Under the pieces are notes generated by a model. It was given only the letters and a program-made list of their open reading frames with translations, made no database searches and was not told the origin of the DNA. A stretch of DNA of 64,000 nt from Patescibacteria group bacterium (GTDB lineage: Bacteria > Patescibacteriota > Minisyncoccia > Phycocordibacterales > Phycocordibacteraceae): the NCBI GenBank assembly GCA_040388985.1, contig JAZKAU010000002.1, forward strand, positions 52,570-116,569, written 5' to 3'. Position 1 is the first letter of the stretch; each line of letters begins with the position of its first letter. Position numbers and translations under genes: made by a program. Shown here one piece after another: positions 10,302-50,221 of this stretch.

Positions 10302-10509
10302 TTTGTCATTACAAATACAACAACATAAATATACGCCATTTCAACCAACAAGCAAGCCATTCTATAGCGTCCTGGCGAGCAGTTCTGTCACTCAGAATCG
10401 TTTGATGTGACTTCGCGATTTAGGTTTCCTTACACGGTCTGAGCCCTCATTCCTTAGGGACTCATATAGAACCAGCCGCTGGCTGAGCTTATAGGCGTAA
10501 TCAACCATA

Positions 10510-11637: not shown

Positions 11638-11661
11638 CGGATCAGCACGAGCGGCTCGTCA

Positions 11662-12795: not shown

Positions 12796-12873
12796 GAACT
12801 TGACTTTACTTATTTTGTGTCTCTATGTATATGTGTCGTCGACAGTCCGACAACTCAGATATATAGTGTCTAT

Positions 12874-13650: not shown

Positions 13651-13654
13651 GATC

Positions 13655-14521: not shown

Positions 14522-14524
14522 ATA

Positions 14525-15400: not shown

Positions 15401-15460
15401 GTGTTCCCAGTATAAACGAGAAGGGCCGCATGCAATGCGGCCCTTCTCGAGAACTTCTGA

Positions 15461-16594: not shown

Positions 16595-16706
16595 AATCCA
16601 TGTAGCTATTTGTTAATAATCCACTGACGGAAATGCTATTGATTATATTGATTAGTGTCAAGAAATGTAGTATATTGTTGGCATTAGCCGACAACGATAC
16701 TAAACG

Positions 16707-17492
16707 ATGGCCAAGAACATACACGACGACTTCGCCGAGATACTAGAGTCCATCGGACTATCCGGACCCGAAGTACAGGTCTTCACGCTCCTCCTCGAGA
16801 GTACGGAGCCCATGCGAGCCACTCCCCTCTCGCGGAAGCTGCGCATTAATCGCACGACGCTCTACGGTCTACTAAAATCTCTGACCGAAAAAGGCTTGGT
16901 ATCGTCTACCGATGAACGCGGCGTGCTCTGCTTCCAGTCCATACAGCCGGAGCTTCTCGTCGACTACATCGAGCGCGCAAAGGAGCGGCTTTCTAAGAAT
17001 GCTGAGCGCATGCGCACGCTCCTCCCGGCGATCATGAGTTCCCGGAAGTCGAATCCGAAGTATTACCCCCAGATCCAATTCTTCGATGGCGTCGAAGGTA
17101 TCAAGCAGGTATACGAAGATACCCTTCGTAACAACAGATCGAAGACGATGCACGGGTTCACTGACTACACGGCAGTACTGGACTGCATGGGGCTCGACTG
17201 GGCCGGGTACTACATCAAGAAACGGAGCGAGATGAACGTCCAGTCCTACACGATCGCTCCTGATTCCGTGAAAGCGCGCGACGCGAAACGACGCGACAGG
17301 CGAGAGCATCGCATTACCAAGATATTCCCGCCCGGCTACACCTTCGATATAGAGATAGCGGCGTATGACGATCGAACGATACTCGTATCGTTCGACGCCG
17401 AGCACCCGCTCGCGGTCCTTATCATCGACCAGAAGATAGCGGACACCATGCGTTCCCTCTTCCGATACGTAGACGATACTCTTCCCGCATAA
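16707..17492 (+). CDS. TrmB-family HTH transcriptional regulator (paralog 4)
   Basis: HTH ...RATPLSRKLRINRTTLYGLLKSLTEKGLV. C-terminal ...MRSLFRYVDDTLPA. Confidence 0.7.
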   Translation: MAKNIHDDFAEILESIGLSGPEVQVFTLLLESTEPMRATPLSRKLRINRTTLYGLLKSLTEKGLVSSTDERGVLCFQSIQPELLVDYIERAKERLSKNAERMRTLLPAIMSSRKSNPKYYPQIQFFDGVEGIKQVYEDTLRNNRSKTMHGFTDYTAVLDCMGLDWAGYYIKKRSEMNVQSYTIAPDSVKARDAKRRDRREHRITKIFPPGYTFDIEIAAYDDRTILVSFDAEHPLAVLIIDQKIADTMRSLFRYVDDTLPA

Positions 17493-17582
17493 CGAAGAAC
17501 TGACACCGAGTCGCCCGTCGTGGGTAACATAGGAACAAAAGCGCCTCTTCCGAGGCGCTTTTGTTCCTATGACTTTTAGAAA

Positions 17583-18713
17583 TTATTGCGGAACGGTGAC
17601 TGCCTGTGCATTCTTTACGATCTTCACGTCGTAGGTCGCAACCTTCAGATCGCCACTCGAGTCGAAGCTGATATCCGGAAAGGAGACACCGGCTTTGTAA
17701 TCGAGAGCTTTGAGACCAGCGATAATGTCTTTGGAATCAGTTCCCTTCTGTGCGATCACCTGTGTGAGCATCTTGAGCGCATCGTACCCGAGCGGGGTAA
17801 CGATGTTGATCACCGTATCTCTTCCGTTTAATGCTTCTACTTTCGACTTGAAGTCCTCAGGACTCCCGACTGCGCCGGTAACGAACATCACGCCTTCCGC
17901 TGCAGGCGAGGTCAGGAACTCTTTCGCGATGAGCGCGTCTCCTCCGAACACGGGCGTGGTCATGCCAAGGTCGCGGAACTGCTGCGTTGCGATTGCTGCA
18001 AGTGCCGGATATGCCGGCATATAGATAAGGTCCGGCTTAGCTGCCTGTATCTTTGCCGCTACCGACTTAACGTCAGTCGCGTCCTGTGCCACGCCTTCAT
18101 TCATGACCACGGTGCCGCCGAGTTCGGTAAAACGCTCGTTAAAGACTTTTTGTAGCCCTTGACCCCAGTCGTTCTGAACATACATCACGGCCACCTTTCT
18201 CTTTCCCAGCGTGTTGTAGATGTACTCTGCCGAGAACCTCCCTTGGAAAGTATCTGTGGGATAGCTGTTGAATATCGAATCATCCCCTCCGGTAAGGCCG
18301 GGGGCAGACGCGCCGACAAGAAGCACCGGGATATTCGCAGCGCGTGCGATGGGTATTGCGGGCCCCGCCGCCGCTGAGCAGACCGGACCGATGATTGCGG
18401 TGACTTTGTCGACGCTAATCAGCTTCTGGAATACAGAGACACCGGTCGAGTCGCATTTATCATCCTCATATACGAGCTCGACCATGCGTCCCTTGATACC
18501 TCCTGCGTCGTTTATTTCCTTGAGTGCCAGTTCAAGTCCAGCTCTCCCGGCCTCACCATAGCTTGCCGCCTCCCCTGAGAGCGGCATAGAGACTCCTATG
18601 CGTATAGGGCTGGTATCAGGTGCAGGCTTACCTCCCTTGAGGAGCAACCAACTCCCAACGATCACCAGGACCATGACTACGACTGTCCCGAGCGTCTTCT
18701 TATTCTTGTCCAT
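17583..18713 (-). CDS. ABC transporter substrate-binding protein, LivK type (SBP 4)
   Basis: Signal/TM. IGVSMPLSGEAASYG motif. 376 aa. Confidence 0.8.
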   Translation of the reverse strand: MDKNKKTLGTVVVMVLVIVGSWLLLKGGKPAPDTSPIRIGVSMPLSGEAASYGEAGRAGLELALKEINDAGGIKGRMVELVYEDDKCDSTGVSVFQKLISVDKVTAIIGPVCSAAAGPAIPIARAANIPVLLVGASAPGLTGGDDSIFNSYPTDTFQGRFSAEYIYNTLGKRKVAVMYVQNDWGQGLQKVFNERFTELGGTVVMNEGVAQDATDVKSVAAKIQAAKPDLIYMPAYPALAAIATQQFRDLGMTTPVFGGDALIAKEFLTSPAAEGVMFVTGAVGSPEDFKSKVEALNGRDTVINIVTPLGYDALKMLTQVIAQKGTDSKDIIAGLKALDYKAGVSFPDISFDSSGDLKVATYDVKIVKNAQAVTVPQ

Positions 18714-18816
18714 AAATTCCGACAGGTATTACTAGTGGTATGCCTGCAAAATATACCTATCTTGACAAGAGTCAATGGCTTGTAGCATAATTGTTGATAT
18801 AATCCAACAACACGAC

Positions 18817-19602
18817 ATGGCTCAACAAATACAAGCTACTTTGACAGGCATATTCGAGAACCTCGGACTCTCATCCAGCGAGATACCTGTTCTCCTCTTC
18901 CTGCTTGAAAGCGCGAACGGTCTGCGCGCCACTGAGATAGCGCGCAAGACCCGTGTGAATCGCACGACGCTCTACGGCATATTGAAGAGCCTGACTTCCC
19001 GGGGCCTCGTATCTTCTTCGGAGGAGAACGGCATCATGCGCTTCCAATCCATACAGCCGCACCAGCTCACCGCCTATATCGAAAGCGCCAAGCAGCGACT
19101 CGAGAGCGATACGAAACGCTTGGATCAAGTCATTCCTGCGCTTGCGCATGCTCGCAAGGCTAAAGACGAGCAATATCCGCAGATACAGTTCTTCAGCGGC
19201 GTCGAAGGTATCAAGCAGGTATACGAAGACACCCTGCGGGATAACCCCTCGAAGGCTATATATGGATTCTTCGACTACGAGGCGACGCTCAAGCTTATGG
19301 ATACAGAGTGGCCTAATTACTATATTAAAAAACGAACCGAAGCAGGTATCGAGTCGCACACTATCGCGACTTATAGCCCGCTGACGCGCACCTTGAAGGA
19401 GTTCGACAAGGATTATTTACGCGTAACGAAGGAGTTCCCCGAAGGATTCTCCTTCGCCATGGAAATCAGCGCTTACGGAGATAAGACGATGCTCATATCG
19501 TTCAACGAAGATCATCCGCTCGCCATAATCATTAAGGATGCGAGGGTAGCGGAGACGATAAAGACTCTCTTCCGGTATATAGACAGCACGCTGCCAGATT
19601 GA
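18817..19602 (+). CDS. TrmB-family HTH transcriptional regulator (paralog 5)
   Basis: MAQQIQATLTGIFENLGLSSSEIPVLLFLLESANGLRATEIARKTRVNRTTLYGILKSLTSRGLV. C-terminus IKTLFRYIDSTLPD is close to paralog 4. Confidence 0.7.
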   Translation: MAQQIQATLTGIFENLGLSSSEIPVLLFLLESANGLRATEIARKTRVNRTTLYGILKSLTSRGLVSSSEENGIMRFQSIQPHQLTAYIESAKQRLESDTKRLDQVIPALAHARKAKDEQYPQIQFFSGVEGIKQVYEDTLRDNPSKAIYGFFDYEATLKLMDTEWPNYYIKKRTEAGIESHTIATYSPLTRTLKEFDKDYLRVTKEFPEGFSFAMEISAYGDKTMLISFNEDHPLAIIIKDARVAETIKTLFRYIDSTLPD

Positions 19603-19637
19603 GTCGCGGTCACTACGCGCTAAACCTTGTACGCGTC

Positions 19638-20423
19638 TTATTGTGCGCCTACCCACGACAACTCGAACATCATTCGCATCATGTTATGTATTGTTGGGTC
19701 CTCGATGATCACGCCGCTCGGCGTGTTGTTCTCGATATTCACGATAGACACCTTGTTCGTCCCGTAGACCGTAATCTCGCTCTTGTACGGGAATTGTTTT
19801 GCCGGGATATGTCTCATATTCGGCCAGAACTTCTTCGGGAGATGCGCGTATTGTGCCTTGATGAAACCCTTATCTTTTGCCGTATCAGGAACGATGCCGC
19901 GTGTCGTTATGCCGATTCGCCCTTTCTCTTTCTTATAGAACTTAAAGAAGTCTTCGGGGAAGAATTGGTCCAGGTAGCCTGCGTTCGCCCACGCGACCAT
20001 CTCGTACGGCTTTTCGACCCGGACATGGTCTTCATAGATGGAAAGTACTCCCTCCTTCCCTTCGAAGTACGTGATCTTCGGCTTATTGGGAACAAGGGTA
20101 TACATGCCTTCAAGGTCAGGCAGGAGTTCTTCGGCGGCCGCGAGCATTTCCTTGCCGCGCTCGACATTCATCTTCGCGAAGCGCAGCAGCTTCCGGGGCC
20201 GCTCTATCTGGTAATACAACTTCTTCCCTTTCTTGATCTCGGTCACGAGCCCTTTTACCGATAGGTCGAGAAGAATCTTGTATACCGTGCTTCGGTTAAT
20301 GCGTGCGTCTTTTGCAAGCGCAGAAGGATAGGCACCTCCCCGTTCCAGAAGCGTTACATAGACGACGGCAGCTTTATCCGACAGCCCTGCCTTCTTTACC
20401 TTCTCTACCAAGCGATCATCCAT
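19638..20423 (-). CDS. TrmB-family HTH transcriptional regulator (paralog 6)
   Basis: AGLSDKAAVVYVTLLERGGAYPSALAKDARINRSTVYKILLDLSVKGLV. C-terminus ...MRMMFELSWVGAQ. Confidence 0.7.
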   Translation of the reverse strand: MDDRLVEKVKKAGLSDKAAVVYVTLLERGGAYPSALAKDARINRSTVYKILLDLSVKGLVTEIKKGKKLYYQIERPRKLLRFAKMNVERGKEMLAAAEELLPDLEGMYTLVPNKPKITYFEGKEGVLSIYEDHVRVEKPYEMVAWANAGYLDQFFPEDFFKFYKKEKGRIGITTRGIVPDTAKDKGFIKAQYAHLPKKFWPNMRHIPAKQFPYKSEITVYGTNKVSIVNIENNTPSGVIIEDPTIHNMMRMMFELSWVGAQ

Positions 20424-20605
20424 GGCCGCATACTATGGCTCAAATCAAAATGTGTCAATTCGTAGGAACAGATTTGCGTAAAATGGACTGAAATCCTGTA
20501 TCTGCTTGTATGTATAGAATTATTTTGTTATTTCAAAATACCAAATTTGACATTGATGATACAAATGTGGCGTTACCGTCTACTCACCTAATTGTCCGCG
20601 CTGCT

Positions 20606-21700
20606 ATGCAAAACACTATAAAAATCGTCGCGGTCCTCGTCGTTCTCGCGCTTATCGCCTTCGGGATTTCGCTGATCTCGCGGCCGAAGAGCGACACGAC
20701 CGTGGTCCTTGGCGCCACCCTACCCCTCACCGGAGACCTAGCCTTTCTGGGCGAGGGATATAGAAACGGAATGAACTTGGCGCTTTCGGAGCTCGGAGAT
20801 ACGAAATTCAAGTATAAGATCGTATTCGAAGACGATAAGTTCGATCCTGCGACCGGTGCTACGACGGCAAATAAGCTCATCTCTGTCGACCATGCTGACG
20901 GACTATTCTCGTTCGGCTCTCCGGTCGGCAACGTCGTCAGTCCGTTAGCCCAGAAGAACAACATTGTACATATAAACGGTATAGCCTCTGATCAGAACGT
21001 TGCCAAAGGAGACTACAACTTCGTCCACTGGACTCCGCCCTACGAGGAGTCGAAGCTCCTCATCTCGGAGCTGCAGAAACGAGGCATCAGTCGCGTTGCC
21101 ATATTCGTGACGAATCAGCCAGGCGCACTCGCAGTGGCAGACCAGGTAAGCACTGACCTGAAAACGAGCGGCATCCAGTTAGTAGGATACGAGACCATCA
21201 ATCCTGGAGAGACTGATATGCGGTCGCACGTAGCTAAGGTTGCTGGTTCGAAGCCGGACATGTACATACTCTTGTCCATGTCCCCTGAGCTCGAGATACT
21301 TACGAAACAGATCAAGGAGCAGGGCATAACGACGCCGCTTACCTCTATCGAGTCCTTCGAGTGGACCACGCAGCCGCAGATGTTTGAGGGCATGTGGTAT
21401 ATAAATGCTGCCGATCCGTCTCCTGCATTCGTGGAGAAATATAAAACTGCATACGGACAGAGCCCGACCGTGGGAGCCGCCAACGGCTATGATGCCGTGA
21501 TGCTCTTCGTTCACGCAGTCGAAACGTCAGCACAAGGGACGGGTAAGCCCAGCGAGGAAGACATAAAGAATGCTCTTCTGAATGTTCGGGACTATAGCGG
21601 CGCGGTCGGTGAACATCTCTCAGTCGACCGGGACGGGCTAATTGTATCTAAGGCAGTAGTGCGAATCATCAAGGACGGCAAGCCCGTTACGGTGAAGTAA
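20606..21700 (+). CDS. ABC transporter substrate-binding protein, LivK type (SBP 5)
   Basis: MQNTIKIVAVLVVLALIAFG signal/TM. LGATLPLTGDLAFLG motif. Start set to ATG 20606 (ORF track starts at 20510). Confidence 0.75.
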   Translation: MQNTIKIVAVLVVLALIAFGISLISRPKSDTTVVLGATLPLTGDLAFLGEGYRNGMNLALSELGDTKFKYKIVFEDDKFDPATGATTANKLISVDHADGLFSFGSPVGNVVSPLAQKNNIVHINGIASDQNVAKGDYNFVHWTPPYEESKLLISELQKRGISRVAIFVTNQPGALAVADQVSTDLKTSGIQLVGYETINPGETDMRSHVAKVAGSKPDMYILLSMSPELEILTKQIKEQGITTPLTSIESFEWTTQPQMFEGMWYINAADPSPAFVEKYKTAYGQSPTVGAANGYDAVMLFVHAVETSAQGTGKPSEEDIKNALLNVRDYSGAVGEHLSVDRDGLIVSKAVVRIIKDGKPVTVK

Positions 21701-21771
21701 GTTCAGGGGAGAAGGCCTGACAAAAGCGAAACGCCCGCGAAGCGGGCGTTTCGCTTTTGTCAGGAGATGAC

Positions 21772-22923
21772 TTACTTCACGTACGGCACCATCTTGCCGC
21801 CCGTGACCGTCTCAGGACTATGTCCAGAGACAGGATCACCATTGGCGCCGATGGTAACCGCGCCGGAAGCTCCCTGCCAGTCTTTTACGCTAGTGTGCAG
21901 CCACTTCGCGATCTTCGTGCCATCATAACCTACGGCCGCAATGGCGTCGCGAACGAGATAGACGGAATCATACTCGGTCTGCGCATAGCTGAGATAGGGC
22001 GCGTCGGCTCCGTACTTCGTCTTGTACGCGGAAACCATCGCGGTGAATTTTGGATTGTCCTTCTGCGTACCGAACTCGGCTCCGAGCGCACCCTCAAGCT
22101 GCTTGGCATTCGCTGTTATCGTTGCCGGGTCGCCGATCGTAACATCGGTGAGCAGAAGAGGAAGCTTCCAATCAAGCTGCGCCATCTGCGGAAGAACGCG
22201 AGACGCGCTCGCAGGAGTCTGCGTATCTAGGAATACTGCATCCGGCTTCTCTCCCTGCACCTTCGTGATTATCGAGCGGAAGTCGGTAGTCGCAGTCGGG
22301 AACGACTCATTCGTCACGGTTCCGCCGAGCTTCGTGAAGGTCTCGGAGAACGCGTTATATATACCGACCGCATAATCGGTCTGTTCCTGGATGAACGCTA
22401 CCTTCCTCCACCCCTTATCCGTATACGCGATGTTCGCGAGGACTGCTCCTTGTGTCGCGTCGGACGGATAGTTACGGACGAAGTAGTCGCTGATCGCGGT
22501 GAGCTTCGGGCTCGACGAACCGGACGAGATGACCGCGACCTTTGCTCGCTCCGCTACCGGCACTGCTGAGAGCGATTCGCTCGAGCAGAATCCGCCGATG
22601 ATCACCTGGACCTTGTCGATGTTCACGAGCTTCGAAGCCGCGTTCGCTGCCGACGTCCCGTCGCACTTGCCGTCTTCGACGACGAGTTCCATCTGCTTGC
22701 CGTCGATACCGCCTGTGGCATTGATCTCATCGGTCGCGAGCTGCATAAAATTCTTCGCAGGCTCGCCATATGACGCTGCATCTCCCGTGAGCGGGAGGAT
22801 GATGCCGACCTTGTACGTGTCACCGACGGCGACAGGTTCGTGATGCCGGGTGATAAGGAACCAGCCCCCGACTACCACGATTACTGCGATAAGAACCCAG
22901 ACCCATTTCGGAAATCCTTCCAT
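21772..22923 (-). CDS. ABC transporter substrate-binding protein, LivK type (SBP 6)
   Basis: N-terminal TM. VGIILPLTGDAASYG motif. 383 aa. Confidence 0.8.
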   Translation of the reverse strand: MEGFPKWVWVLIAVIVVVGGWFLITRHHEPVAVGDTYKVGIILPLTGDAASYGEPAKNFMQLATDEINATGGIDGKQMELVVEDGKCDGTSAANAASKLVNIDKVQVIIGGFCSSESLSAVPVAERAKVAVISSGSSSPKLTAISDYFVRNYPSDATQGAVLANIAYTDKGWRKVAFIQEQTDYAVGIYNAFSETFTKLGGTVTNESFPTATTDFRSIITKVQGEKPDAVFLDTQTPASASRVLPQMAQLDWKLPLLLTDVTIGDPATITANAKQLEGALGAEFGTQKDNPKFTAMVSAYKTKYGADAPYLSYAQTEYDSVYLVRDAIAAVGYDGTKIAKWLHTSVKDWQGASGAVTIGANGDPVSGHSPETVTGGKMVPYVK

Positions 22924-23071
22924 AGAGAGTTATATAAGGTGTTAATTGCCAATTCTGAAGAAAGTATGAACTGCGGCGAAAGCCTGTCAACACGCTCATG
23001 TGGGGTACTATTCTGAACCCGTCCAGAAATCCTGTATCTGCCTCGATTCGTCGGGAAAAGCTGATTTAGTG

Positions 23072-23857
23072 TCACGAGCCTGACACGGCCTTCTCACTAC
23101 GCTTCGCTTCTTTCCAGGCTAGCTCGAAAACTTTCTTCATAGCATGAGCAATCTCGGCGCTTTCTATAATGATGCCGAGCTTATCGCGCCATGAGGCGAT
23201 CATTATCTTATTGTCATAGATCTCGATGTCAGGAGTTATGTCGAATTCCTCTTTAGGTATGATGGCTATGTCACGCTTCTCATCCTTGTTATGTGAGGCG
23301 CGCTCAAGCGACGCAGTAGTCTCTGGGACGATGCCGCGAATGCTGATCCCTTTCTCTGCTCGACGTTCATAGTATCTAGGGAAATAGTTTCCGAGCGTCG
23401 CGTGCATATCTTCGTATGCGGCATACGCCACGATCGGTTCAGTTGCGGTCAATGTATCTTCGTACACTTCCTTAAGCCCCTCAATACCTTCGTAGAATCG
23501 TACTTGCGGCCGGTCCTGGACCGTATGCATCGCCCTTAGCTGCGGCAAGAACGCTTTGGCGGTACGCAACTGTTGTTCCGTCTCGGATAATCTGCTATCG
23601 AGAAGCGCGATAAGCTTATCCGGAGACTCGGCGGCATATTCTTCCTTCGGTTCTTTCCCCGACAATCGTACCAGATCCTTCTGAGCCAAGGCAGCGAGTA
23701 TGTCGTAGCCGGTAGTCCTGTTTATGCCGGCCTTACGTGATATCTGGGTTACAGTCCCGCGACCGAGCTTCAATATCGCCAGATATACGCCAACCTCTCT
23801 CTTAGAAAGTCCTAACGAGATAAGCGTCTTTACGATATTCTGTTGTCCCTTTTCCAT
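23072..23857 (-). CDS. TrmB-family HTH transcriptional regulator (paralog 7)
   Basis: LGLSKREVGVYLAILKLGRGTVTQISRKAGINRTTGYDILAALAQKDLV. C-terminus MKKVFELAWKEA. Divergent from radical SAM gene. Confidence 0.7.
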   Translation of the reverse strand: MEKGQQNIVKTLISLGLSKREVGVYLAILKLGRGTVTQISRKAGINRTTGYDILAALAQKDLVRLSGKEPKEEYAAESPDKLIALLDSRLSETEQQLRTAKAFLPQLRAMHTVQDRPQVRFYEGIEGLKEVYEDTLTATEPIVAYAAYEDMHATLGNYFPRYYERRAEKGISIRGIVPETTASLERASHNKDEKRDIAIIPKEEFDITPDIEIYDNKIMIASWRDKLGIIIESAEIAHAMKKVFELAWKEAKRSEKAVSGS

Positions 23858-24033
23858 ACGATAACCATACACTACGCTCTATATTTGTGTCAATATTACT
23901 CCACAATATACATTATATCCTTTATATAAAGGATATTCGAGTGTTCTTTTATTGACATAATTGACAGTAAGGAATAATATTGTATCGGGTGCAACTTGAC
24001 ACCAACCGATAATACAAACCAAGGAGGTCAATC

Positions 24034-25284
24034 ATGAACGTATTCCCTAACGTGGCAGCAACCCTGCCGCCTAAAGGTCAGATTCCGCACAGGTATCGCC
24101 TGATGGTCAACAAATGGAGCTTTCCGGAGGACCGGATCGGCGAAACCGTTACGGCCCACGGCGAGACCATCAAGAAGATGCTCACCCTCGATATCAACAT
24201 TCCCGAGACCGGCTTCGCAGTCCTCGTCAACGCGCAGGCACCAGGATCGGACGCAGCCAAGCGCACGTTCGTGAAAAGCTATCCTTGTCCGCACGCATGC
24301 CCTGGCTGCTTCAATAACGCCGACCTGTTCAACCCGATCATGTCGCTCGAGGAGGTCTTCTCCGTCATCGACCAGGCCTGCGAACTGGGCCTGGAATCCA
24401 TGAAGTTCCTCGGTCCGGGGGAGCTGCTCGCCAATCCTCGAATGTTCTACATCCTCGACGAGCTGGCGAGGCGCAATATCGTCGCCGGCATCTTCACGAA
24501 GGCGGCAATGATGGGTAATGATATGTTGTCGCAGCACTATCACGGCATCGGCTCGGAAGAGCTGACGCGCCGGCTCGCGACATATCCCAACATTACCTTC
24601 CTGGTGGGCGGCCGATCCTTCGACCCGGCACTCGAGAATCGGTTCATTCCCCAGAACCGGCGCGAGTTCAGTGAGCGCTTCGACTACCACGCGGCACGCG
24701 GTCTCGCGATCGAGCGTCTCTGCGCGCACGGCATGAATGCCGATCTCATGCACCAACGGCTCGAGATCGCCTGCGCGCCGGTCACGAGCGAGAACATCGG
24801 CGGGTGCCTCGAGCTCTATCAATGGGGTACCGAACGCAATATCCCCGTGGTAATGCCGCCCACGATGGTAAGCGGCAAAGGCCATCGGCTGGAGAAGGCC
24901 GCTGCCGAGGTGCAGTTCGAAGACGACTATATCGAGCTTGCCGTAGCGGTCTACACCTGGGCTATCCAGCGCGGCGTCATGACCGTGGAGCAGTTGCTGC
25001 ATGAGGGCGCAGCACCCTACATCGGCATCGCTCCCTGCAACCAACTGACCCATGGCCTGTACATCCACTACGACGGTCAGGTGTGGCGGTGCCCCGGGAA
25101 CGACACTCCCGACTTCGTCGTGCACCACAATGTGCGCGAAGCTCCGTTGCGACAGATCTGGGTGAACAGCAGGAACTATGGCATTCAGGCCTTCAACAAC
25201 GGATGCGTCAAGGACGGCATATCGCTGCCAATGCGATTCTACAGCGAAGTGCCGGAGCGCGTGGTCGCGATGCTGAAGATCTGA
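24034..25284 (+). CDS. radical SAM protein (CxxxCxxC) with ~85-aa N-terminal extension and C-terminal Cys-containing (SPASM/twitch-like) region, function unknown
   Basis: SYPCPHACPGCFN is a C-x3-C-x2-C radical SAM cluster motif, followed by a Gly-rich FLGPGELL SAM-binding stretch. C-terminal CNQLTHGLYIHYDGQVWRCPGND...NNGCVKDG. Perfect SD AAGGAGG 6 nt upstream of the ATG. AT-rich promoter region 23873-24033. Confidence 0.7.
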   Translation: MNVFPNVAATLPPKGQIPHRYRLMVNKWSFPEDRIGETVTAHGETIKKMLTLDINIPETGFAVLVNAQAPGSDAAKRTFVKSYPCPHACPGCFNNADLFNPIMSLEEVFSVIDQACELGLESMKFLGPGELLANPRMFYILDELARRNIVAGIFTKAAMMGNDMLSQHYHGIGSEELTRRLATYPNITFLVGGRSFDPALENRFIPQNRREFSERFDYHAARGLAIERLCAHGMNADLMHQRLEIACAPVTSENIGGCLELYQWGTERNIPVVMPPTMVSGKGHRLEKAAAEVQFEDDYIELAVAVYTWAIQRGVMTVEQLLHEGAAPYIGIAPCNQLTHGLYIHYDGQVWRCPGNDTPDFVVHHNVREAPLRQIWVNSRNYGIQAFNNGCVKDGISLPMRFYSEVPERVVAMLKI

Positions 25285-25360
25285 GGCAGTGATTCGGTTC
25301 GAGTAATGACCTTTTTATGCGCCTGTCGGGAAACCGACGGGCGCATTTCATTTCCAGAAC

Positions 25361-26113
25361 CTACCGGCTCGGAAGCGAGTCCCAGATGACCTTGAAGAGG
25401 TTCTGTTGCATGCGCACGAGGGCTTCGGTCTCTATGACGATGGTCGTGACGGGATTGGTGAGCGGATGGATGACTATCTTACGGGGCGCGATAGCCATGT
25501 TTGCGTCGATAGTCGTTCCTTCCGGCAGTATGCGCACTTCTTCGCGATAGTTCTTCTCTGTCTTCTTATATGAGCGCGCGGTCTCTGAAGACACAAGGAT
25601 GACCTTGGTATGCACGTCTATGCGCAGCCGCCGCTCTATGAACGTCTTGAAATATTCCTTGTCGAAGTGATTCCACCGGTCCGGGTCGCCGATGACATAG
25701 TAGTCGTCACCACTGCGGAGATCCTGAAGCAGCTCATCATACGCACTTTTCATAGCTTCAACTCCCGAGTGATACCGGATGATGGAGTCGTTACCGCGCA
25801 GCGTATACAAGGCTTCGAGCTCCGGGAAGAACGACTGCAGCGCGTTCTTCTGCTCATCGAGCATGCGTTCGAGGCGTGCAGGGTTCTCCGCTACCGGAAA
25901 TTCCTTGAATCCTCTCTGCTCGACGGATACCAGTCCCTTTGCCTTCAGAGTCTCGATGACGTGGTAGATAGTCGTCCTCTTCACACCCGACTGGAGCGCA
26001 ATCTTTAGGATAGTGGTGGGGCCAAGCTCCAGCATGGCCAGATATACGGCTGCTTCGTGGTCTCCGAGCCCCGCGTGAGCCAGCATTCTCTGGAGTGATT
26101 CTCTGTTTTGCAT
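25361..26113 (-). CDS. TrmB-family HTH transcriptional regulator (paralog 8)
   Basis: AGLGDHEAAVYLAMLELGPTTILKIALQSGVKRTTIYHVIETLKAKGLV. C-terminus ...QQNLFKVIWDSLPSR. Confidence 0.7.
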   Translation of the reverse strand: MQNRESLQRMLAHAGLGDHEAAVYLAMLELGPTTILKIALQSGVKRTTIYHVIETLKAKGLVSVEQRGFKEFPVAENPARLERMLDEQKNALQSFFPELEALYTLRGNDSIIRYHSGVEAMKSAYDELLQDLRSGDDYYVIGDPDRWNHFDKEYFKTFIERRLRIDVHTKVILVSSETARSYKKTEKNYREEVRILPEGTTIDANMAIAPRKIVIHPLTNPVTTIVIETEALVRMQQNLFKVIWDSLPSR

Positions 26114-26267
26114 GATATGTCGAAAGCTCGGACAAATTTATTTCCTTATTTATAGCATTGTTTTTGTCGTATTTATATAATCTGTCGACAATTTTGGCGA
26201 AATAGATATACGCCCCCACCATTAGCGCTACGTACTACCCTGGTGCGCCTAATACCAACGAGAATAT

Positions 26268-26954
26268 ATGAAAAAAGAACTGACGCTCGCGATAGGCGAT
26301 TCGTGGCATCCGCGTGCCCTTCCCTATCTCGCGATGATCCTGATGGCCATGATGCTCATTACGAACGTCCTCAACCTGAAGTTCATCAACTTCTTCGGGC
26401 TCTCGATTATCGGATCAGAGATCATCTACGTCTTCTCTCTCATCCTTTCGGACATCATGACGGAGGTCTATGGATACCGTCGCGTGCGGCGGCTATTGTG
26501 GGCAGGCCTTTCGTGCCTCGTCCTGTACGCGGTCTTCGTACAGGCAGTCGTCCTGCTCGCTCCTGCGCATGGCTATACAAGCAATGCCGCCTTCGTGACC
26601 GTATTCGCGCAGGCGCCACGCATCGTCGTTGCGAGCATCGCCGCATACTTCGTTACCGAGCTTGCGAACTCGCTCGTCATGTCGCGCATGAAGGTCCGCT
26701 TCCGTTCGAAGTACTTTTACGCTCGCGCACTCGGCTCGACGATGGTCGCACAAGCGGCCAACGGCGTGGTGTTCTTCGGCATCGCGTTCACGGGAGTCAT
26801 GCCGCTCAACCTCATCGTTTCCGCCTGCGTCTTCAGCTGGGTCGCCGTCATTGTCTGCGAGACGCTCATCCTTCCGATCACTAAGAGGCTCGCCTATCTG
26901 CTCAAGCACTATGAGGGGGTCGAGCATTACGACCAGGCTCCGCAATCGAACTAA
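26268..26954 (+). CDS. YhhQ/DUF165 (VUT) family membrane transporter, queuosine-precursor transporter-like
   Basis: 6-TM protein. ...YVFSLILSDIMTEVYGYRRVRRLLWAG and VVFFGIAFTG segments match conserved cores of YhhQ-family proteins (F-x-F...D...EVYG; FF.IAF). Confidence 0.55.
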   Translation: MKKELTLAIGDSWHPRALPYLAMILMAMMLITNVLNLKFINFFGLSIIGSEIIYVFSLILSDIMTEVYGYRRVRRLLWAGLSCLVLYAVFVQAVVLLAPAHGYTSNAAFVTVFAQAPRIVVASIAAYFVTELANSLVMSRMKVRFRSKYFYARALGSTMVAQAANGVVFFGIAFTGVMPLNLIVSACVFSWVAVIVCETLILPITKRLAYLLKHYEGVEHYDQAPQSN

Positions 26955-27573: not shown

Positions 27574-28347
27574 CTAGTGCGCACTGGTGCCGGGAGGCAC
27601 GGGACGGTCAGGCGTTACGAAGGCGAAGGTGTCGCCCTCCCCTACGGCAAATAGCATGCCGTCGCTCTCAAGACCCTTGAGTTTGCGGGGCGCAAGATTG
27701 GTGACGAATGAGAGTTGGCGACCCACTAATGACTCGGGTTCCGGAACATAGGCGGCGATGCCGGACACTATCTGGCGGGGCGCAGCCTCGCCCACATCTA
27801 TCATCAGACGCAGGAGCTTGTCAGTCTCGGGCACGCGTTCGGCTGAAAGCACGGTTCCGACCTTTACTTCGATTTTCGCGAAGTCGTCGATGGTGATCTT
27901 TGCAGGTGCGGCTTCTGGAGCCTCCGTCTCAGGCTTTGACGGCTCCGGACGCTGCGCCGTGCGTTCAAGGTAACTCGTGAGAATGAGGGCGGCAGCGGAG
28001 GCATCGACATCCGGCGAGCCTTCCATGCGCGTGCCATCCGGGAAGCGTCTGGCTTCCTGGGTCGTATAGGTTTCAGGCTCGTAGTTGATCGGAATGCCTG
28101 TGCGCCCGGCGAGCGCCGTGCCGAGCTCTCGCGCGCTCTGCGCAACGGGATTATCACCGCCTGAAAAATTGCGGGATTCGCCGATAACTACAGCTCCGAC
28201 ATTCTTCTCCTTTATGAGCACCGCGAGTTCATCTGCGAGCTTGGGTGTGGTCGTAAGCACGCCGTGCGGGAATCCCATCTGTCCGGCTTCGTCAGACAGG
28301 GCTATGCCCGTCTTCTTCGTTCCGAAATCTATGCCGATATATTTCAT
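27574..28347 (-). CDS. fusion protein: RuvX/YqgF Holliday-junction-resolvase-like domain + C-terminal tRNA-binding (CsaA/Trbp111/EMAP-like) domain
   Basis: N-terminus MKYIGIDFGTKKTGIALSD...AVVIGE (YqgF/RuvX signature). C-terminus DDFAKIEVKVGTVLSAERVPETDKLLRLMIDVGEA...RQIVSGIAAYV...LVGRQLSFVTNLAPRKLKGLESDGMLFA (OB-fold tRNA-binding domain pattern). Start set to MKYIG ATG (rc 28345-28347). Confidence 0.6.
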   Translation of the reverse strand: MKYIGIDFGTKKTGIALSDEAGQMGFPHGVLTTTPKLADELAVLIKEKNVGAVVIGESRNFSGGDNPVAQSARELGTALAGRTGIPINYEPETYTTQEARRFPDGTRMEGSPDVDASAAALILTSYLERTAQRPEPSKPETEAPEAAPAKITIDDFAKIEVKVGTVLSAERVPETDKLLRLMIDVGEAAPRQIVSGIAAYVPEPESLVGRQLSFVTNLAPRKLKGLESDGMLFAVGEGDTFAFVTPDRPVPPGTSAH

Positions 28348-28413
28348 GTCAGCATAGTACCTTATTCTCTCCTCGTTCGCGCCTACGCACGGATATGCTA
28401 TCCTTGGTCGCAT

Positions 28414-28737: not shown

Positions 28738-29262
28738 TTGAATGGGGTTCTGGGAGGAGTGCGTGAGTGGTATAATAGGTTAGTGACTGAAAAATACCGA
28801 CGGAATGCAAATACCGCATGCAGGACCTGTCTGAAGCCAATTTATCGAAGACCATCTGAGGTAAAGTCTGGGAAGGTTTTCTGTAGTTCATTGTGCTACG
28901 GAGCGGCAAACCGCAAAGAGAAACCCTGCGTTATTTGTGGGAAACTTATTCTTGCTAGAGCAAATAAGAAGACTTGCAGCCGAGAGTGTGCTAATCGAAA
29001 CCGAGCAGGAATCAAGTACAAGATTGGGCGGCCGCGTGATAAGTCTAATACGATACGCACGATCAAGCTGCATCTCATCAATGAGCGCGGATCGGAATGT
29101 GAACGTTGCGGATACGACAAGCGAGAGATACTACACGTTCATCACAAAGACCGAGATCGCTCGAACAATGAGGTGTCGAATCTTGAGCTCATCTGTCCGA
29201 ATTGCCACTATGAGGAGCATTATCTGGAAAAAAGCTGGCTTGATGGTAGACTGACCTCCTAA
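28738..29262 (+). CDS. HNH endonuclease with N-terminal Cys-rich zinc-ribbon repeats (paralog of 4984-5478)
   Basis: CRTCL...CSSLCY, CVICG...CSREC then HVHHKDRDRSNNEVSNLELICPNCH HNH motif. Ends 4 nt before tRNA-Ser. Confidence 0.8.
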   Translation: MNGVLGGVREWYNRLVTEKYRRNANTACRTCLKPIYRRPSEVKSGKVFCSSLCYGAANRKEKPCVICGKLILARANKKTCSRECANRNRAGIKYKIGRPRDKSNTIRTIKLHLINERGSECERCGYDKREILHVHHKDRDRSNNEVSNLELICPNCHYEEHYLEKSWLDGRLTS

Positions 29263-47777: not shown

Positions 47778-49223
47778 TCAGCCGGGATCGGCCAGCGCAG
47801 CCATAACCGACGGGCTGTAGAAGAGTGCCAACACCTCATCCTCGAGCAACTGCCCGAGTAGGGATAGCCGCAGGACGACAGCCCCGTCGCGCTCGGTCTG
47901 GACGAGCACGCCGAGGTTCAGGAGTTGTCCGACCAGCCGGTAATAGTGCTCCGAGAGCGCAGGATACCGCTGCCGTGCCAGGCCGTCAGCCTCGGTCTCG
48001 ATCCGTCCGGTACGCAGTCCCGCGACATACGAAGTCGCGAGTTGCTCCGCAAGATCGATCTCGAGTGCCGTCCCAATGGGCACGCGCCCCTCTTCGATAC
48101 GCGCCACGTACTGGCCGCCCTTGTTCTCCGGTAGGTTCCGGAAGAACAAGCCGCAAGTCTCCCCGGTCACGCGGGAATAGGCCGACGCGCCGATTCCGAG
48201 AAGGTCGTTCGTTCCGGCTAGCCGGGTATTCTTGAACGGATCGACGTAACGCTCGTCCAAGACGAATCGGTTGCCATCCACCTGGCGATAGCCCATCTTG
48301 CGGAGTTGCTGCCAGATGAGCATGCGCCCAAGGAAGGTGTCCTGTTCACCCTCGAAGTCCCGCTGCGTCTTCGGATCGGCACGGCGCCTGCCCTGAGGGC
48401 GATCTGGGTCGAACCGGCCGTGATACCAGGTGATGTGCGGCGGCCGTATAGTTTCCAGTACTTGCAGATTATCCCAAACCTCGTCAGGCGTGCCGCTCGA
48501 AAGCGACTGTATGAGATCGACGTTCCAGTTATCGAACACCTCGCGCACGTACGCGCAGGCGCCAACAGCGATCTCGCGGCCGTATCCACGCCCTGCTTCT
48601 TGTAAGACCCGGTTATCGAAGGATTGGATGCCAAAACTGAAACGCGTGACACCCTCTCTTTTCAGTGCGCGGAGCTTCTGAGGTCCTTCTTCTGCGGTGA
48701 TGGTAAGCGGACTTCCCTCTACGCAGATCTCGGCATCTGGAAGCAGGTTGAACTTTTCCCGGATAAAGCGGACCAGGTTGACCAAATCCGCTTCTTCGAG
48801 CACCAGCGGCGTGCCGCCGCCGATGTAAAGCGACGAGATCGCCGTTCCCGTGCGACGCAGCTGCTCCGCCCAGAAATCCAGGTCCCATGTCAGGGCTTCC
48901 ATGTACCGGCCGACTTTCGCCTGCGTGCGGAGCCCTTTCCAAAGCATGACGTCGTAATGGCAGAATGGGCATTTGCTTTCGCACGGAACGATGTGGACGT
49001 ATAGGTTCGTCGTTCTGCCGTACTTTGGCACGTTTATTCCTTCGATGGACGTAACCGTCCGCAAGGCTTTCAGCGGCGGGTAGGTGACCACGGAATGACT
49101 CCCTCCCAAGGTTAGACGACTGATTTGTAGTCCGGCTCCGCGCAGCTTCGGCAGGATGCCGGGAATACCGAGACGTACCAAGGCTTTGTTCGCTCTTGCG
49201 AAAGCGATTGACTTATCACTCAT
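47778..49223 (-). CDS. radical SAM HemN/HemW-family protein (coproporphyrinogen-oxidase-like)
   Basis: VPCESKCPFCHYD (CxxxCxxC). YIGGGTPLVL is the HemN-family GGGTP motif. 481 aa. Confidence 0.7.
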   Translation of the reverse strand: MSDKSIAFARANKALVRLGIPGILPKLRGAGLQISRLTLGGSHSVVTYPPLKALRTVTSIEGINVPKYGRTTNLYVHIVPCESKCPFCHYDVMLWKGLRTQAKVGRYMEALTWDLDFWAEQLRRTGTAISSLYIGGGTPLVLEEADLVNLVRFIREKFNLLPDAEICVEGSPLTITAEEGPQKLRALKREGVTRFSFGIQSFDNRVLQEAGRGYGREIAVGACAYVREVFDNWNVDLIQSLSSGTPDEVWDNLQVLETIRPPHITWYHGRFDPDRPQGRRRADPKTQRDFEGEQDTFLGRMLIWQQLRKMGYRQVDGNRFVLDERYVDPFKNTRLAGTNDLLGIGASAYSRVTGETCGLFFRNLPENKGGQYVARIEEGRVPIGTALEIDLAEQLATSYVAGLRTGRIETEADGLARQRYPALSEHYYRLVGQLLNLGVLVQTERDGAVVLRLSLLGQLLEDEVLALFYSPSVMAALADPG

Positions 49224-49435: not shown

Positions 49436-50221
49436 ATGGAAAAGACATCTCAAAAACTGAAGGAGTCGCTTACTTCTCTAGGACTATCTCAGAAGGAAGC
49501 GGCCATCTATATTGCTCTCTTGGAGCTTGGTAGATCGACCGTATCGCAAATCTCGCGGAAGGCGGCCGTGAACCGCGCGACCGGCTATGTCATCCTCGAT
49601 TCCCTTATCACTAAAGGGCTCGTCAGTATCTCCGGCAAGGAGCCGAAGCAGGAATATGTCGCAGAGTCTCCCGATAAGCTGCCTGAGTTTTTCAGGAACG
49701 AGCAGAAAGAAGCTCGAGAGAAGGAGGAGAAGGCACAGGAGCTCTCGCTTCAGCTGAAGTCGATACAGAAGGTCGGTGATCGGCCGCAAGTACGTTTTTA
49801 CGAGGGAGAGGAAGGGATAAAGGCCGTCTTCGAGGATTCCCTGACTGCGACGTCAGGAAAGATAATTGCTTTCACCTCTATAGAGGACCAGCATACGTCT
49901 ATTCCAAACTACTTCCCCGAATACTACCAGCGCCGCAAGAGGAAGAAGATATTCATGCGGTCGATATTTCCCGACACGCCCATGGGTATCGAGAGACAGG
50001 GAGCGAACGAGAGCGAGTATCGCGAGTCAGTCCTCGTTCCCAGAGAGATGTACGGCATCCACCCTGCTATAAACGTATACGACAACAAGCTTATGATCGC
50101 TTCCTTTCGCGAAAAGCTCGGTATCCTCGTGGAAAGCGCCGAGATCGCGGACGCGATGAAGAAGATATTCGAACTCGCGTGGATCGGCGCGCATTCCCTG
50201 GAAACACAAAAAGAAACATGA
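49436..50221 (+). CDS. TrmB-family HTH transcriptional regulator (paralog 9)
   Basis: LGLSQKEAAIYIALLELGRSTVSQISRKAAVNRATGYVILDSLITKGLV. C-terminus MKKIFELAWIGA is closest to paralog 7. Confidence 0.7.
   Translation: MEKTSQKLKESLTSLGLSQKEAAIYIALLELGRSTVSQISRKAAVNRATGYVILDSLITKGLVSISGKEPKQEYVAESPDKLPEFFRNEQKEAREKEEKAQELSLQLKSIQKVGDRPQVRFYEGEEGIKAVFEDSLTATSGKIIAFTSIEDQHTSIPNYFPEYYQRRKRKKIFMRSIFPDTPMGIERQGANESEYRESVLVPREMYGIHPAINVYDNKLMIASFREKLGILVESAEIADAMKKIFELAWIGAHSLETQKET

Follow-up and report, generated by a model that had tools for sequence, protein, structure and literature searches.

We found that the gene at 24034..25284 (+) of the window, by which we mean the whole analysed stretch of 64,000 nucleotides from a Patescibacteria (CPR) bacterium, encodes a true radical SAM enzyme whose structure falls into the SPASM/Twitch class (416 aa, ATG start; hereafter rSAM). 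Its family is rare and patchy, (almost) confined to CPR bacteria and DPANN archaea, strongly conserved and without a characterised relative. Its members are nearly always accompanied by a divergent regulator and, in some lineages, by a predicted riboswitch-like leader. We tentatively lean, with slightly less than even confidence, towards the reading that rSAM is a stand-alone accessory enzyme that would transform a small molecule under ligand control, as part of a divergent regulator module.

CPR bacteria and DPANN archaea are ultra-small symbionts that rely on hosts and have little metabolism of their own, and for most genes particular to these lineages no function has been assigned. Because conservation, lineage restriction, regulator and leader combine in this family, rSAM is a tractable target, and the regulator or the leader could serve to fish for the ligand and thereby reveal the substrate. 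At the same time, radical SAM subfamilies of this uncharacterised kind abound and rSAM is one more well-documented orphan among them; the superfamily has ~700,000 members, the majority of them uncharacterised, as stated in the RadicalSAM.org paper (PMC9477430).

Motifs, predicted fold and family assignment of rSAM

The earlier note on this DNA had described a radical SAM motif that comes late in the chain, and this was confirmed. The cluster motif CPHACPGC (C85-X3-C89-X2-C92) follows residues 1-84 and is invariant in sets of 36 and of 50 homologs. Its cysteines lie ~68-85 aa deeper into the chain than in PqqE-type enzymes, with profile positions 15-93 corresponding to residues 83-160. The Gly-rich SAM-binding stretch noticed before is KFLGPGE (residues 124-130), a GGE-like motif that is invariant across 36 homologs. 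The GGE-type motif and a partial (beta/alpha)6 TIM barrel are both present, as expected of a radical SAM enzyme; the AF2 model has a pLDDT of 90.7. The N-terminal extension (aa 1-84) is conserved and family-specific, and in the model it is predicted to pack on the core.

The C-terminal cysteines had been likened to those of an auxiliary-cluster domain, and they indeed follow the Twitch pattern. SPASM domains sensu stricto carry the seven-Cys motif CX9-15GX4C-gap-CX2CX5CX3C-gap-C and bind two auxiliary clusters; Twitch is a truncated SPASM that has the CX9-15GX4C half-motif round a beta-hairpin and a single auxiliary cluster (PMC6231123). In rSAM we found C335-X12-G348-X4-C353 followed by C391, with cluster binding being predicted, and the prediction places strands at residues 341-344 and 362-364 within this region. 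Only six cysteines are invariant in the family, namely the three of the radical SAM cluster and C335, C353 and C391, which are invariant across the homologs aligned; the CX2CX5CX3C element of full SPASM is absent. Since there are only three C-terminal cysteines, we assign one auxiliary site to the protein, and the C-terminal domain appears as a Twitch-type domain with ligands for one predicted auxiliary Fe-S cluster. The putative fourth cluster position is occupied by His340 in CPR, by Cys in close DPANN orthologs and by a residue not expected to ligate a cluster in distant relatives. His340 is a possible fourth ligand.

The protein had also been taken for a member of an unrecognised family, distinct from QueE, MoaA and Cfr, and our searches agree: no curated Pfam or NCBIfam family scored above its cutoff for rSAM. 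The general model PF04055 (Pfam Radical_SAM) reached 23.5 bits against a cutoff of 29.5, and Pfam SPASM 20.4 against 21.5. Many homologs have a precomputed PF04055 match and distant relatives score 28.6-51.4 bits; we attribute the miss to sequence divergence and do not count it against radical SAM membership. When Pfam, NCBIfam and PADLOC were applied to rSAM and ten distant relatives, only generic Radical_SAM/SPASM matches were obtained. Neither the NCBIfam equivalog cutoff of MoaA nor the family HMM cutoffs of QueE, Cfr-RlmN and viperin were reached. A glycyl-radical activase was rejected on the basis of the wrong size, the presence of a Twitch domain and the absence of a GRE gene nearby. 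Searches of the PDB by sequence and profile gave only a spurious designed repeat protein and a local match to Cfr/NifB, and in the literature we found no description of the rSAM family or of CPR TrmB regulators.

The structural neighbours of rSAM are the Twitch enzymes BtrN, MoaA, SkfB and SpeY and, from the wider SPASM group, anSME, PqqE, SuiB, CteB and ChlB. However, identity to these enzymes is just 10-19%, with Foldseek TM < 0.5. In contrast to them, rSAM has, where an RRE would be, a unique and strongly conserved N-terminal extension of 84 aa, three invariant C-terminal cysteines with a fourth position that is His, Cys or neither depending on the lineage, and a stand-alone gene with a regulator outside any biosynthetic cluster. 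BlsE (cytosylglucuronate decarboxylase), DesII and viperin-like enzymes show no family-level sequence match to rSAM, and the NCBIfam and PADLOC models of viperin did not match it. In structure, the invariant three-Cys auxiliary site and the N-terminal extension probably set the family apart from BlsE, DesII and viperin.

These comparisons bear on an alternative that we regard as quite unlikely, in which rSAM modifies nucleotides or RNA, acting either like MoaA, viperin or BlsE on a nucleoside (tri)phosphate bound at the open Fe site or like Cfr/RlmN on rRNA or tRNA; the modification would be conditional and could serve, for instance, resistance or antiviral nucleotide chemistry. The top structural matches include BlsE, DesII, viperin-like enzymes and MoaA, and Cfr is the top PDB profile match (E 0.001, local only), but these matches reflect generic core similarity at 10-15% identity, and the viperin, MoaA, QueE and Cfr models stay far under their cutoffs. 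The resemblance of the three-Cys auxiliary site to the open-site cluster of MoaA would fit such chemistry, whereas no RNA-binding domain and no PADLOC match were found in rSAM. Basic residues are invariant in the family (K48, K124, K156, R194, R268, R368 and K393), yet K48, R194, R368 and K393 are not retained in the distant branch of the superfamily. NUDIX genes occur near some archaeal and distant homologs, but this adjacency is sporadic. As a neighbour shared by the DPANN loci, a NUDIX or receiver-like small protein was rejected, being present in only 3-5 loci.

The family comprises 134 clusters, all from Patescibacteria/CPR or DPANN archaea, and its members share 42-78% identity across the two domains of life. 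Among 185,579 species genomes we counted 49 rSAM loci, and none was found in the viral contigs searched. This cross-domain distribution bears on gene exchange among episymbionts.

The divergent regulator and the shared control region

Upstream of rSAM lies its cognate TrmB-family regulator gene (23072..23872, (−); PF01978 51.9 bits against a cutoff of 25.6). Its annotated start is GTG 23872, but ATG 23857 is more likely and gives a protein of 261 aa. The predicted model consists of a wHTH domain, a long coiled-coil helix and a PLD/Nuc-like C-terminal domain, similar to TrmBL2. The pairing pointed out in the earlier note proved to be general in CPR: trmB is divergent and adjacent to rSAM in 21 out of 21 complete CPR loci, among them that of the window, and the TrmB proteins beside rSAM are orthologous to one another. 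Since this adjacency holds in loci with different outer genes (PGK, pilin and NusA, for example), the pair seems to be kept or moved as a unit.

The signal to which the regulator might respond cannot be read off from its family name. The NCBIfam TrmB and TrmBL1 equivalogs gave 33-42 bits against cutoffs of 600-650, and a sugar-sensing TrmB sensu stricto (~340 aa, two-subdomain C-terminus) was rejected, as the model of the partner has the PLD-like subdomain only. Because of this short, TrmBL2-like architecture, sugar-type sensing cannot be assumed. Unlike TrmB and TrmBL2 of Thermococcales, the partner is a bacterial (CPR) protein of 261 aa without the C-terminal sugar-binding subdomain of TrmB, and belongs to a family that has multiplied strongly in this genome (nine paralogs within the 64 kb, the partner among them) and whose members are one-to-one local partners of single genes. 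In the window, TrmB paralogs pair one-to-one with uptake genes, namely six for Peripla_BP_6 binding proteins and one for YhhQ. In Thermococcales, TrmBL2 acts as a global repressor of chromatin-like character and is not known to have a ligand; ligand control of the partner is for this reason not assured.

The intergenic region between trmB and rSAM spans 161 bp from GTG 23872 or 176 bp from ATG 23857. As reported before, it is AT-rich (GC 0.32-0.40, whereas the genes on either side have 0.52-0.64) and rich in TTGACA/TGTCAA. Such elements lie at 23888, 23952, 23961 and 23996, representing four of the 17 copies in the 64-kb window. In a shuffle test the mean was 0.12 and none of 20,000 shuffles reached four copies (P < 5e-5). 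The region can be aligned across 12 CPR loci with fixed spacing, which supports these elements as conserved promoter or operator elements; plain promoter −35 sequence accounts for some of the conserved TTGACA signal. A promoter scan returned five promoter-like sites where 1.4 were expected.

On the minus strand, a sigma-70-like trmB promoter (23864..23893; 10 out of 12 positions matching) consists of −35 TTGACA (23893-23888), an 18-nt spacer and −10 TATGGT (23869-23864), and TGTCAA is equally placed in the 12 aligned CPR loci. Given this position, the trmB leader before ATG 23857 would be very short or absent. The −35 element is overlapped by block A, an imperfect inverted repeat (TTTGTGTCAATATTACTCCACAATA, 23883..23907). 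Its family consensus, TGTCAAT-N5-TTCCACAAAAATA, is kept in at least 12 CPR intergenic regions, and in locus L023 it forms a perfect TGTCAA-N6-TTGACA. We propose block A as a candidate autoregulatory operator. Midway between both promoters we found a 22-bp perfect palindrome that is unique in the window (ATATCCTTTATATAAAGGATAT, 23915..23936). In the control-region alignment it stands where the central conserved block of the family, ATATTGATAAATA(A/T)GG, lies, and it is a candidate operator for a regulator dimer.

On the plus strand, the sigma-70-like rSAM promoter (23952..23980; again a 10/12 match) has −35 TTGACA at 23952-23957, a 17-nt spacer and −10 TAATAT at 23975-23980, and the same arrangement is present in 11 other CPR loci. 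A second TTGACA (23961-23966) overlaps the spacer, where the family consensus reads TGACG-N8-TTGACA. It is followed by a short leader hairpin (TATCGGGTG...CACCAACCGATA, 23983..24011 (+); RNAfold of 23981-24036, −9.2 kcal/mol), which contains the third TTGACA (23996-24001), possibly an additional operator half-site within the 5′ UTR. The Shine-Dalgarno sequence AAGGAGG, already noticed, is located at 24021..24027 (+), 6 nt before the rSAM ATG.

In DPANN, the divergent position of trmB is taken by a fused tandem Lrp/AsnC regulator in ~28 of 32 loci. This regulator consists of two complete units in one ~327-aa chain, and its conservation is strong, with 427-444 bits in comparisons between phyla. 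Each of the two halves resembles Lrp, LrpA, AsnC and PH1519 across the HTH and RAM domains, but in contrast to ordinary Lrp/AsnC (FFRP) proteins the two units are fused. Amino-acid sensing is known for the Lrp/AsnC family. A reading as NirDL/AhbAB siroheme decarboxylase, accompanied by a NirJ-like radical SAM enzyme, was rejected at 18-30 bits against cutoffs of 125-140. Homology between the TrmB and DPANN regulator types was rejected as well, as only a weak HTH match was obtained (hhalign probability 13%). The intergenic gaps between the DPANN regulator and rSAM measure only 30-137 bp, and these control regions hold inverted repeats whose arms differ among subgroups (AACCG...CGGTT or AGCAT...ATGCT).

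It is very unlikely, in our view, that the adjacency of trmB has no regulatory meaning, with rSAM merely sitting or inserting beside a global or chromatin protein of the TrmBL2 kind that is widespread in CPR. With 1,815 matches against 134, the TrmB clade exceeds the enzyme family more than tenfold, and close orthologs are present on long contigs without an rSAM gene, and the regulator is for both reasons not dedicated to rSAM. The TrmBL2-like architecture of the partner and the nine paralogs of the window point in the same direction. Against this, the divergent pairing is found in all 21 complete CPR loci despite their differing outer flanks, conservation extends over the entire intergenic region, its fixed spacing included, and DPANN independently keep the divergent layout with an unrelated regulator family. 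The narrower idea of a TrmB clade dedicated to radical SAM genes was dropped, as the TrmB partnership of a second pair in the window is unconserved in two other CPR genomes.

Gene neighbourhood and transcription units

Between the rSAM stop and a convergent gene (25361-26113) lies a 13-bp GC-rich hairpin (25317..25346; folding energy of 25285-25360, −33.1 kcal/mol), which likely is a bidirectional terminator. With its own promoter, Shine-Dalgarno sequence and this terminator, the rSAM gene would therefore be monocistronic. Around the CPR and DPANN loci examined, no conserved neighbour of rSAM other than the regulator was found.

The identity of the YhhQ-type transporter two genes downstream was upheld (YhhQ/Vut_1, 26268..26954; TIGR00697 96 bits against a cutoff of 50.95), but the connection of rSAM with it that the earlier note suggested was not. 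A role of rSAM as a deazapurine or vitamin salvage enzyme tied to this queuosine-precursor transporter and its block is extremely improbable and largely refuted. The YhhQ gene does lie 1 kb downstream, with six binding-protein genes and Liv-type ABC components upstream of rSAM. However, YhhQ is missing from every rSAM locus examined other than the window, and within the window a terminator hairpin and a convergent gene separate it from rSAM, YhhQ having its own divergent TrmB paralog and being a separate transcription unit. A distant branch of the rSAM superfamily, on two unrelated contigs, is embedded in Liv/HAAT ABC-importer operons, which would suit a transporter link; these relatives are related only distantly and have an extra ~330-aa domain. 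A binding-protein link for the CPR family was also rejected, such genes being near only 4 of 17 loci, about chance level, and a candidate of this type beside TrmB (cluster c3) proved to be NusA.

A peptide-modifying role had been considered as well. In this alternative, which we judge unlikely, rSAM is a peptide or protein maturase (a RiPP cross-linker, an epimerase or an anSME-like enzyme) whose substrate gene is located elsewhere and whose auxiliary cluster re-oxidises the substrate radical. The absence of a precursor-peptide ORF noted before extends to the homologous loci: near none of ~55 rSAM loci did we find a conserved short ORF, protease or exporter, and the gaps in DPANN leave no room for a precursor gene. 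In addition, the AF2 model has no RRE-like winged-helix domain, and the three C-terminal cysteines suffice for a single auxiliary site and fall short of the seven-Cys SPASM arrangement. A conservation of 42-78% over Bacteria and Archaea would also be unusual among RiPP enzymes. A PqqE-type maturase in particular was rejected, given the low NCBIfam score (26 bits against a cutoff of 381), the lack of an RRE-like fold and the lack of a conserved neighbouring short ORF.

Proposed role and structured leaders

Several of these results make us lean towards a small-molecule substrate: the single auxiliary site, the absence of an RRE-like domain and of a precursor ORF, the short DPANN gaps, the 42-78% identity over two domains, the Lrp/AsnC-type regulator, the pairing of the TrmB paralogs in the window with uptake genes, the distant branch within Liv/HAAT operons, and the leader RNA in seven orthologous loci. 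These functional arguments are all contextual. In the small-molecule reading, the regulator would bind the TTGAC repeats or palindromic elements that overlap both promoters, and would control the rSAM gene and its own gene upon a small-molecule signal. In a sub-clade, a structured leader that sequesters the Shine-Dalgarno sequence and AUG may act as a second layer. The 5′-deoxyadenosyl radical would then remove a hydrogen atom from a small metabolite that the cell scavenges from its host or surroundings, most plausibly amino-acid-like or nucleoside/sugar-like. The auxiliary cluster may either anchor the substrate at an open Fe site, as in MoaA, or take an electron from the substrate radical, as in BtrN/anSME-like oxidation. 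The role of rSAM would thus be ligand-induced salvage or conversion rather than housekeeping or peptide maturation.

We consider it distinctly doubtful that all parts of this picture extend further, i.e. that enzyme, regulator and (in the sub-clade) leader together carry out a radical SAM reaction for salvage or conversion that is under ligand control, has not been described before, is specific to ultra-small episymbionts and was exchanged between CPR and DPANN, that the leader is a new riboswitch class with the substrate or product as its ligand, and that the chemistry of the three-Cys (+His/Cys) Twitch cluster is new to the superfamily.

Searching the window at 22800-26400 with Rfam 15 (E up to 1) returned only noise and no known riboswitch or leader, and a covariance model of the long structured leader found it neither in the window, whose short leader hairpin is a different element, nor in loci beyond the seven described next. 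In seven orthologous rSAM loci, a structured 5′ leader RNA was found, with 13 compensatory pairs. The structured leaders of L017, L019, L021 and L023 matched no Rfam 15 family, and the leader RNA of the seven loci appears to be new, unclassified and riboswitch-like.

A second TrmB-rSAM pair is located in the window at 47778-50221. The earlier note had missed this pair, as well as the DPANN share of the rSAM family.

The radical SAM enzyme and its auxiliary site

ORF 24034..25284(+) encodes a radical SAM (rSAM) enzyme of 416 aa, which carries the motif CPHACPGC and three C-terminal cysteines as described in the earlier note; the other sequence features given there were likewise found. The motif provides C85, C89 and C92 and is followed by KFLGPGE (residues 124-130), and the C-terminal cysteines are C335 (PCNQ), C353 (RCPGND) and C391 (NNGCVKD). 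In alignments of 36 and 50 family members, these six were the only invariant cysteines. C335-X12-G348-X4-C353 matches CX9-15GX4C, the first half of the published SPASM motif, while the second half, CX2CX5CX3C...C, is absent and replaced by the single C391. Following the definitions of SPASM and Twitch domains (PMC6231123), the C-terminal domain is of the Twitch type with one predicted auxiliary cluster, and not SPASM. Thus, of the SPASM/twitch-like domain first proposed, the Twitch part with its one site stands and the full SPASM motif does not. Position 340 is His in all 17 CPR (Patescibacteria) members and Cys in 8 of the 10 close members from DPANN (ultra-small archaea) in the 50-member alignment, and distant relatives have Thr, Asn or Ser. 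This variability suggests that the predicted auxiliary site has three constant ligands and a fourth that varies; it might be a MoaA-like open site or a fully ligated electron-transfer cluster. Residues 1-84 are strongly conserved (W28, K48, T51, D53, N66, Y83) and were modelled with high confidence as a small three-stranded sheet with two helices, which does not have the appearance of an RRE-type winged helix.

The family was not recognised in the earlier note, and searches of curated family libraries gave only generic matches below threshold: 23.5 bits for Radical_SAM (cutoff 29.5), 20.4 bits for SPASM (cutoff 21.5) and 26 bits for the PqqE model (cutoff 381). The PADLOC scan gave no match, and when the PDB was searched by sequence and by profile, it yielded just a local match to Cfr/NifB at the cluster loop. 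Values in our comparison table were 19.1 for ChlB, 19.0 for both anSME and SkfB, 18.1 for SuiB, 17.2 for BlsE, 17.0 for MoaA and 15.3 for viperin. When the enzyme model was searched with Foldseek, BlsE was the top match (TM 0.47), followed by PqqE, DesII, EpeE and viperin-like enzymes, and by this model-based search there is no close structural relative. A full-library profile search placed the enzyme in a wider superfamily with 83 representatives below 1e-30, which have the core in common with it and different N- or C-terminal additions; no curated family membership was found for these relatives.

Among 5.8 billion proteins, 134 clusters matched the enzyme family. The window enzyme's own NCBI entry, from a MAG of a Patescibacteria group bacterium, is annotated 'SPASM domain-containing protein'. 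The remaining matches come from CPR (Taylor-, Nomura-, Pacebacteria and others; 52-78% identical to the enzyme) and DPANN (Woese-, Pace-, Micrarchaeota; 42-47%). With one genome scanned for each of 185,579 species, 49 loci were found, and the family gained a DPANN branch at 31-38% identity and a few MAGs labelled Proteobacteria. No member was found on viral contigs. This distribution indicates that the family is rare, patchy and accessory, yet strongly constrained. The enzyme represents an orphan Twitch-type rSAM family common to CPR and DPANN, which forms a conserved module with its regulator.

Head-to-head pairing with two types of regulator

The gene upstream of the enzyme, 23072..23872(-), encodes a TrmB-family winged-helix protein (PF01978, 51.9 bits). 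We predicted ORFs in about 55 loci and grouped all neighbouring genes by clustering. Besides the enzyme, only two clusters were recurrent, each directly upstream and on the opposite strand. The linkage to TrmB proposed earlier is conserved, as a TrmB protein of ~260 aa adjoins the enzyme in all 21 complete CPR loci (window included), and a ~327-aa protein does so in about 28 of 32 DPANN loci, the distant branch included. The outer flanks vary (PGK, TIM, pilin, NusA, HU, RNase Y). A YhhQ/Vut_1 gene does lie two genes downstream of the enzyme (26268..26954(+); TIGR00697, 96 bits, cutoff 50.95); the suggested tie to this transporter was not borne out, since YhhQ is absent from all other loci examined. 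Moreover, it is divergent from another TrmB paralog, 25361..26113(-), and therefore forms a separate regulator-target unit outside the rSAM unit.

For the enzyme-adjacent TrmB proteins, the best match was the window's adjacent copy in 16/16 tested loci (176-385 bits). A single close window paralog ranked second (168-290 bits), and the other seven window paralogs scored far lower (125 bits or less). By these sequence matches, the enzyme-adjacent TrmB proteins are orthologs across CPR loci. The TrmB clade (1,815 matches; more than 120 clusters with at least 59% identity) is far larger than the enzyme family, and close TrmB orthologs occur on contigs of 0.3-0.8 Mb without any enzyme among the matches listed. 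The CPR enzyme is thus always accompanied by the TrmB regulator, whereas the regulator often occurs without the enzyme.

The DPANN partner is a fused tandem Lrp/AsnC protein, each half of which aligns with the Lrp, LrpA, AsnC and PH1519 structures (HTH and RAM). It scored 84-92 bits with regulator models. A siroheme decarboxylase of the NirDL/AhbAB type working with a NirJ-like enzyme was also considered and rejected, as AhbA/B reached only 18-30 bits (cutoffs 125-140). TrmB and the tandem Lrp/AsnC regulators show a weak HTH match at most. Thus, two distinct regulator families have come to occupy one and the same head-to-head position.

Control regions and a structured leader RNA

The 176-bp spacer between enzyme and trmB is AT-rich as first described (GC 0.32-0.40 versus 0.52-0.64 in the flanking genes), and the perfect Shine-Dalgarno sequence AAGGAGG was found at 24021-24027, 6 nt upstream of the enzyme ATG. 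TTGACA/TGTCAA occurs four times in the spacer and 17 times in the entire 64 kb; shuffles keeping composition contained 0.12 copies on average, and none of 20,000 had four. Two predicted sigma-70-like promoters are arranged back-to-back, one for the enzyme (23952-23980, plus strand; TTGACA-17-TAATAT) and one for trmB (23893-23864, minus strand; TTGACA-18-TATGGT), and the position of the latter puts the likely TrmB start near the transcription start, at the ATG at 23857. Between the two promoters is a perfect 22-bp palindrome (23915-23936), a second TTGACA (23961) overlaps the enzyme promoter within its spacer and a third (23996) is located in a short leader hairpin. A 13-bp GC-rich hairpin (25317-25346) follows the enzyme stop codon, so the enzyme gene is monocistronic.

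An alignment of twelve CPR control regions shows three blocks with nearly fixed spacing: TGTCAAT-N5-TTCCACAAAAATA; ATATTGATAAATA(A/T)GG, the window counterpart of which is the palindrome; and TGACG-N8-TTGACA followed after 17-18 nt by an extended -10. The enzymes of these loci are only 64-78% identical, and conservation of non-coding DNA despite this divergence argues for a function of the blocks, although some of the signal is merely promoter sequence. The regulator gene of DPANN loci has an archaeal TATA box with an inverted repeat on its flanks, and a BRE/TATA element, GAAAGTTTAATATA, lies upstream of the enzyme gene. The repeat arms are AACCG...CGGTT (TAACCG...CGGTTA) in the close group (L007, L014, L029, L030, L033, L036) and AGCAT...ATGCT ((G)AGCATA...TATGCT(C)) in the distant group (L042-L047, L052, L057, L059, L064). 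In a strict search, the arms were exact in 8/25 DPANN loci and imperfect in the others. The change of arms with enzyme subgroup fits candidate operators co-evolving with the tandem Lrp/AsnC proteins.

In seven orthologous CPR loci outside the window, a leader of ~150 nt separates promoter and enzyme gene (L017:9464-9615, L019:9840-9997, L020:1706-1866, L022:8129-8286, L023:6416-6560, L073:7310-7458 and L100:6501-6656, minus strand). RNAalifold predicted a multi-helix junction of 46 pairs, 13 with compensatory double changes. In the predicted closing helices, the SD-like GGUG/GAUG is paired with CACC/CAUC, and the AUG itself with a CAU further upstream. No Rfam 15 family matched, and each full copy in the metagenome scan precedes the enzyme family. 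The covariance model found no copy elsewhere in the sequences analysed and none in the window. From these few sequences, we consider the leader a candidate for a new, riboswitch-like cis-regulatory RNA.

A proposed small-molecule substrate, uptake genes and relatives

We propose that the regulator would bind the TTGAC and palindromic elements and control both promoters according to a small-molecule signal, and that the enzyme would abstract hydrogen from a small scavenged metabolite. We lean towards a small molecule because of the single auxiliary site, the lack of an RRE in the enzyme and its unusual cross-domain conservation. Furthermore, no precursor ORF was found near the enzyme in about 55 loci, with DPANN gaps of merely 30-137 bp. 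The DPANN partner points the same way, as Lrp/AsnC is a family known for amino-acid sensing, and so do the pairing of window TrmB paralogs with uptake genes and a distant superfamily branch inside complete Liv/HAAT-type ABC importer operons on two unrelated contigs. Orphan rSAM families are numerous; the regulator and, in related loci, the leader RNA make this one unusually tractable.

The window TrmB paralogs adjoin single genes one-to-one (six Peripla_BP_6 genes, YhhQ and two rSAM genes), suggesting that the TrmB family is a general local switch in this lineage. In the block 8059-22923, the six Peripla_BP_6 (LivJ-like) binding-protein genes (10510, 11662, 15461, 17583, 20510, 21772) each lie beside their own TrmB paralog (9546, 12817, 16707, 18775, 19638, 23072), which suggests one-to-one local regulation of uptake genes in this CPR genome. 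By inspection, this block also holds two putative ABC ATPase genes (8059-9521) and two likely Liv-type permease genes (13655-15400).

Among the paralogs, TrmB 49436..50221(+) is closest to the regulator (275 bits) and stands head-to-head with a second rSAM gene, 47778..49223(-), across a 212-bp AT-rich gap. The HemN-like product of this rSAM gene (481 aa, motif CESKCPFC) has no sequence kinship to the enzyme, and its top NCBIfam matches (STM4012, ChuW/HutW, HemW) reached 111-121 bits, all below cutoff. Two other CPR genomes examined lack the pairing of this gene with TrmB. A Bradyrhizobium homolog lies in an MbnB/TglH-type peptide cluster with methyltransferases. In another CPR genome (L103:5328-7467), the HemN-like rSAM gene lies among the same conserved housekeeping genes (HU, RNase Y, ClpP, trigger factor, PPase, NusA) that surround the Twitch-type enzyme in L004:7058-13225 and in L001. 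Accessory genes may favour this neighbourhood.

The importer operons (L065:5526-12274 and L105:91-6299; in a Draconibacterium genome and an unrelated metagenome contig) contain long distant relatives of 707-761 aa in the order ATPase(s), Peripla_BP_6, rSAM, an ORF of 128-142 aa and two BPD_transp_2 permeases. The Draconibacterium copy adjoins pAgo (Piwi), type I R-M and HEPN genes. In DPANN, a second paralogous rSAM gene directly follows the first in L007:9333-10571 (= L031) and L045:11035-12087, and in the Micrarchaeota tandem locus NUDIX and two methyltransferase genes come next. A few genes from a DPANN enzyme-regulator pair, L014:1054-3540 encodes an 828-aa archaeal rSAM-like protein that matches Radical_SAM and Fer4_12 weakly and is split by an intein carrying a LAGLIDADG endonuclease. 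By inspection, window ORF 27574-28413(-) (279 aa) appears to be an unusual fusion of a YqgF/RuvX-type resolvase-like start (MKYIGIDFGTKKTGIAL...) with an end resembling a tRNA-binding (EMAP-like) domain, and 28738-29262(+) is a Cys-rich, HNH endonuclease-like ORF.
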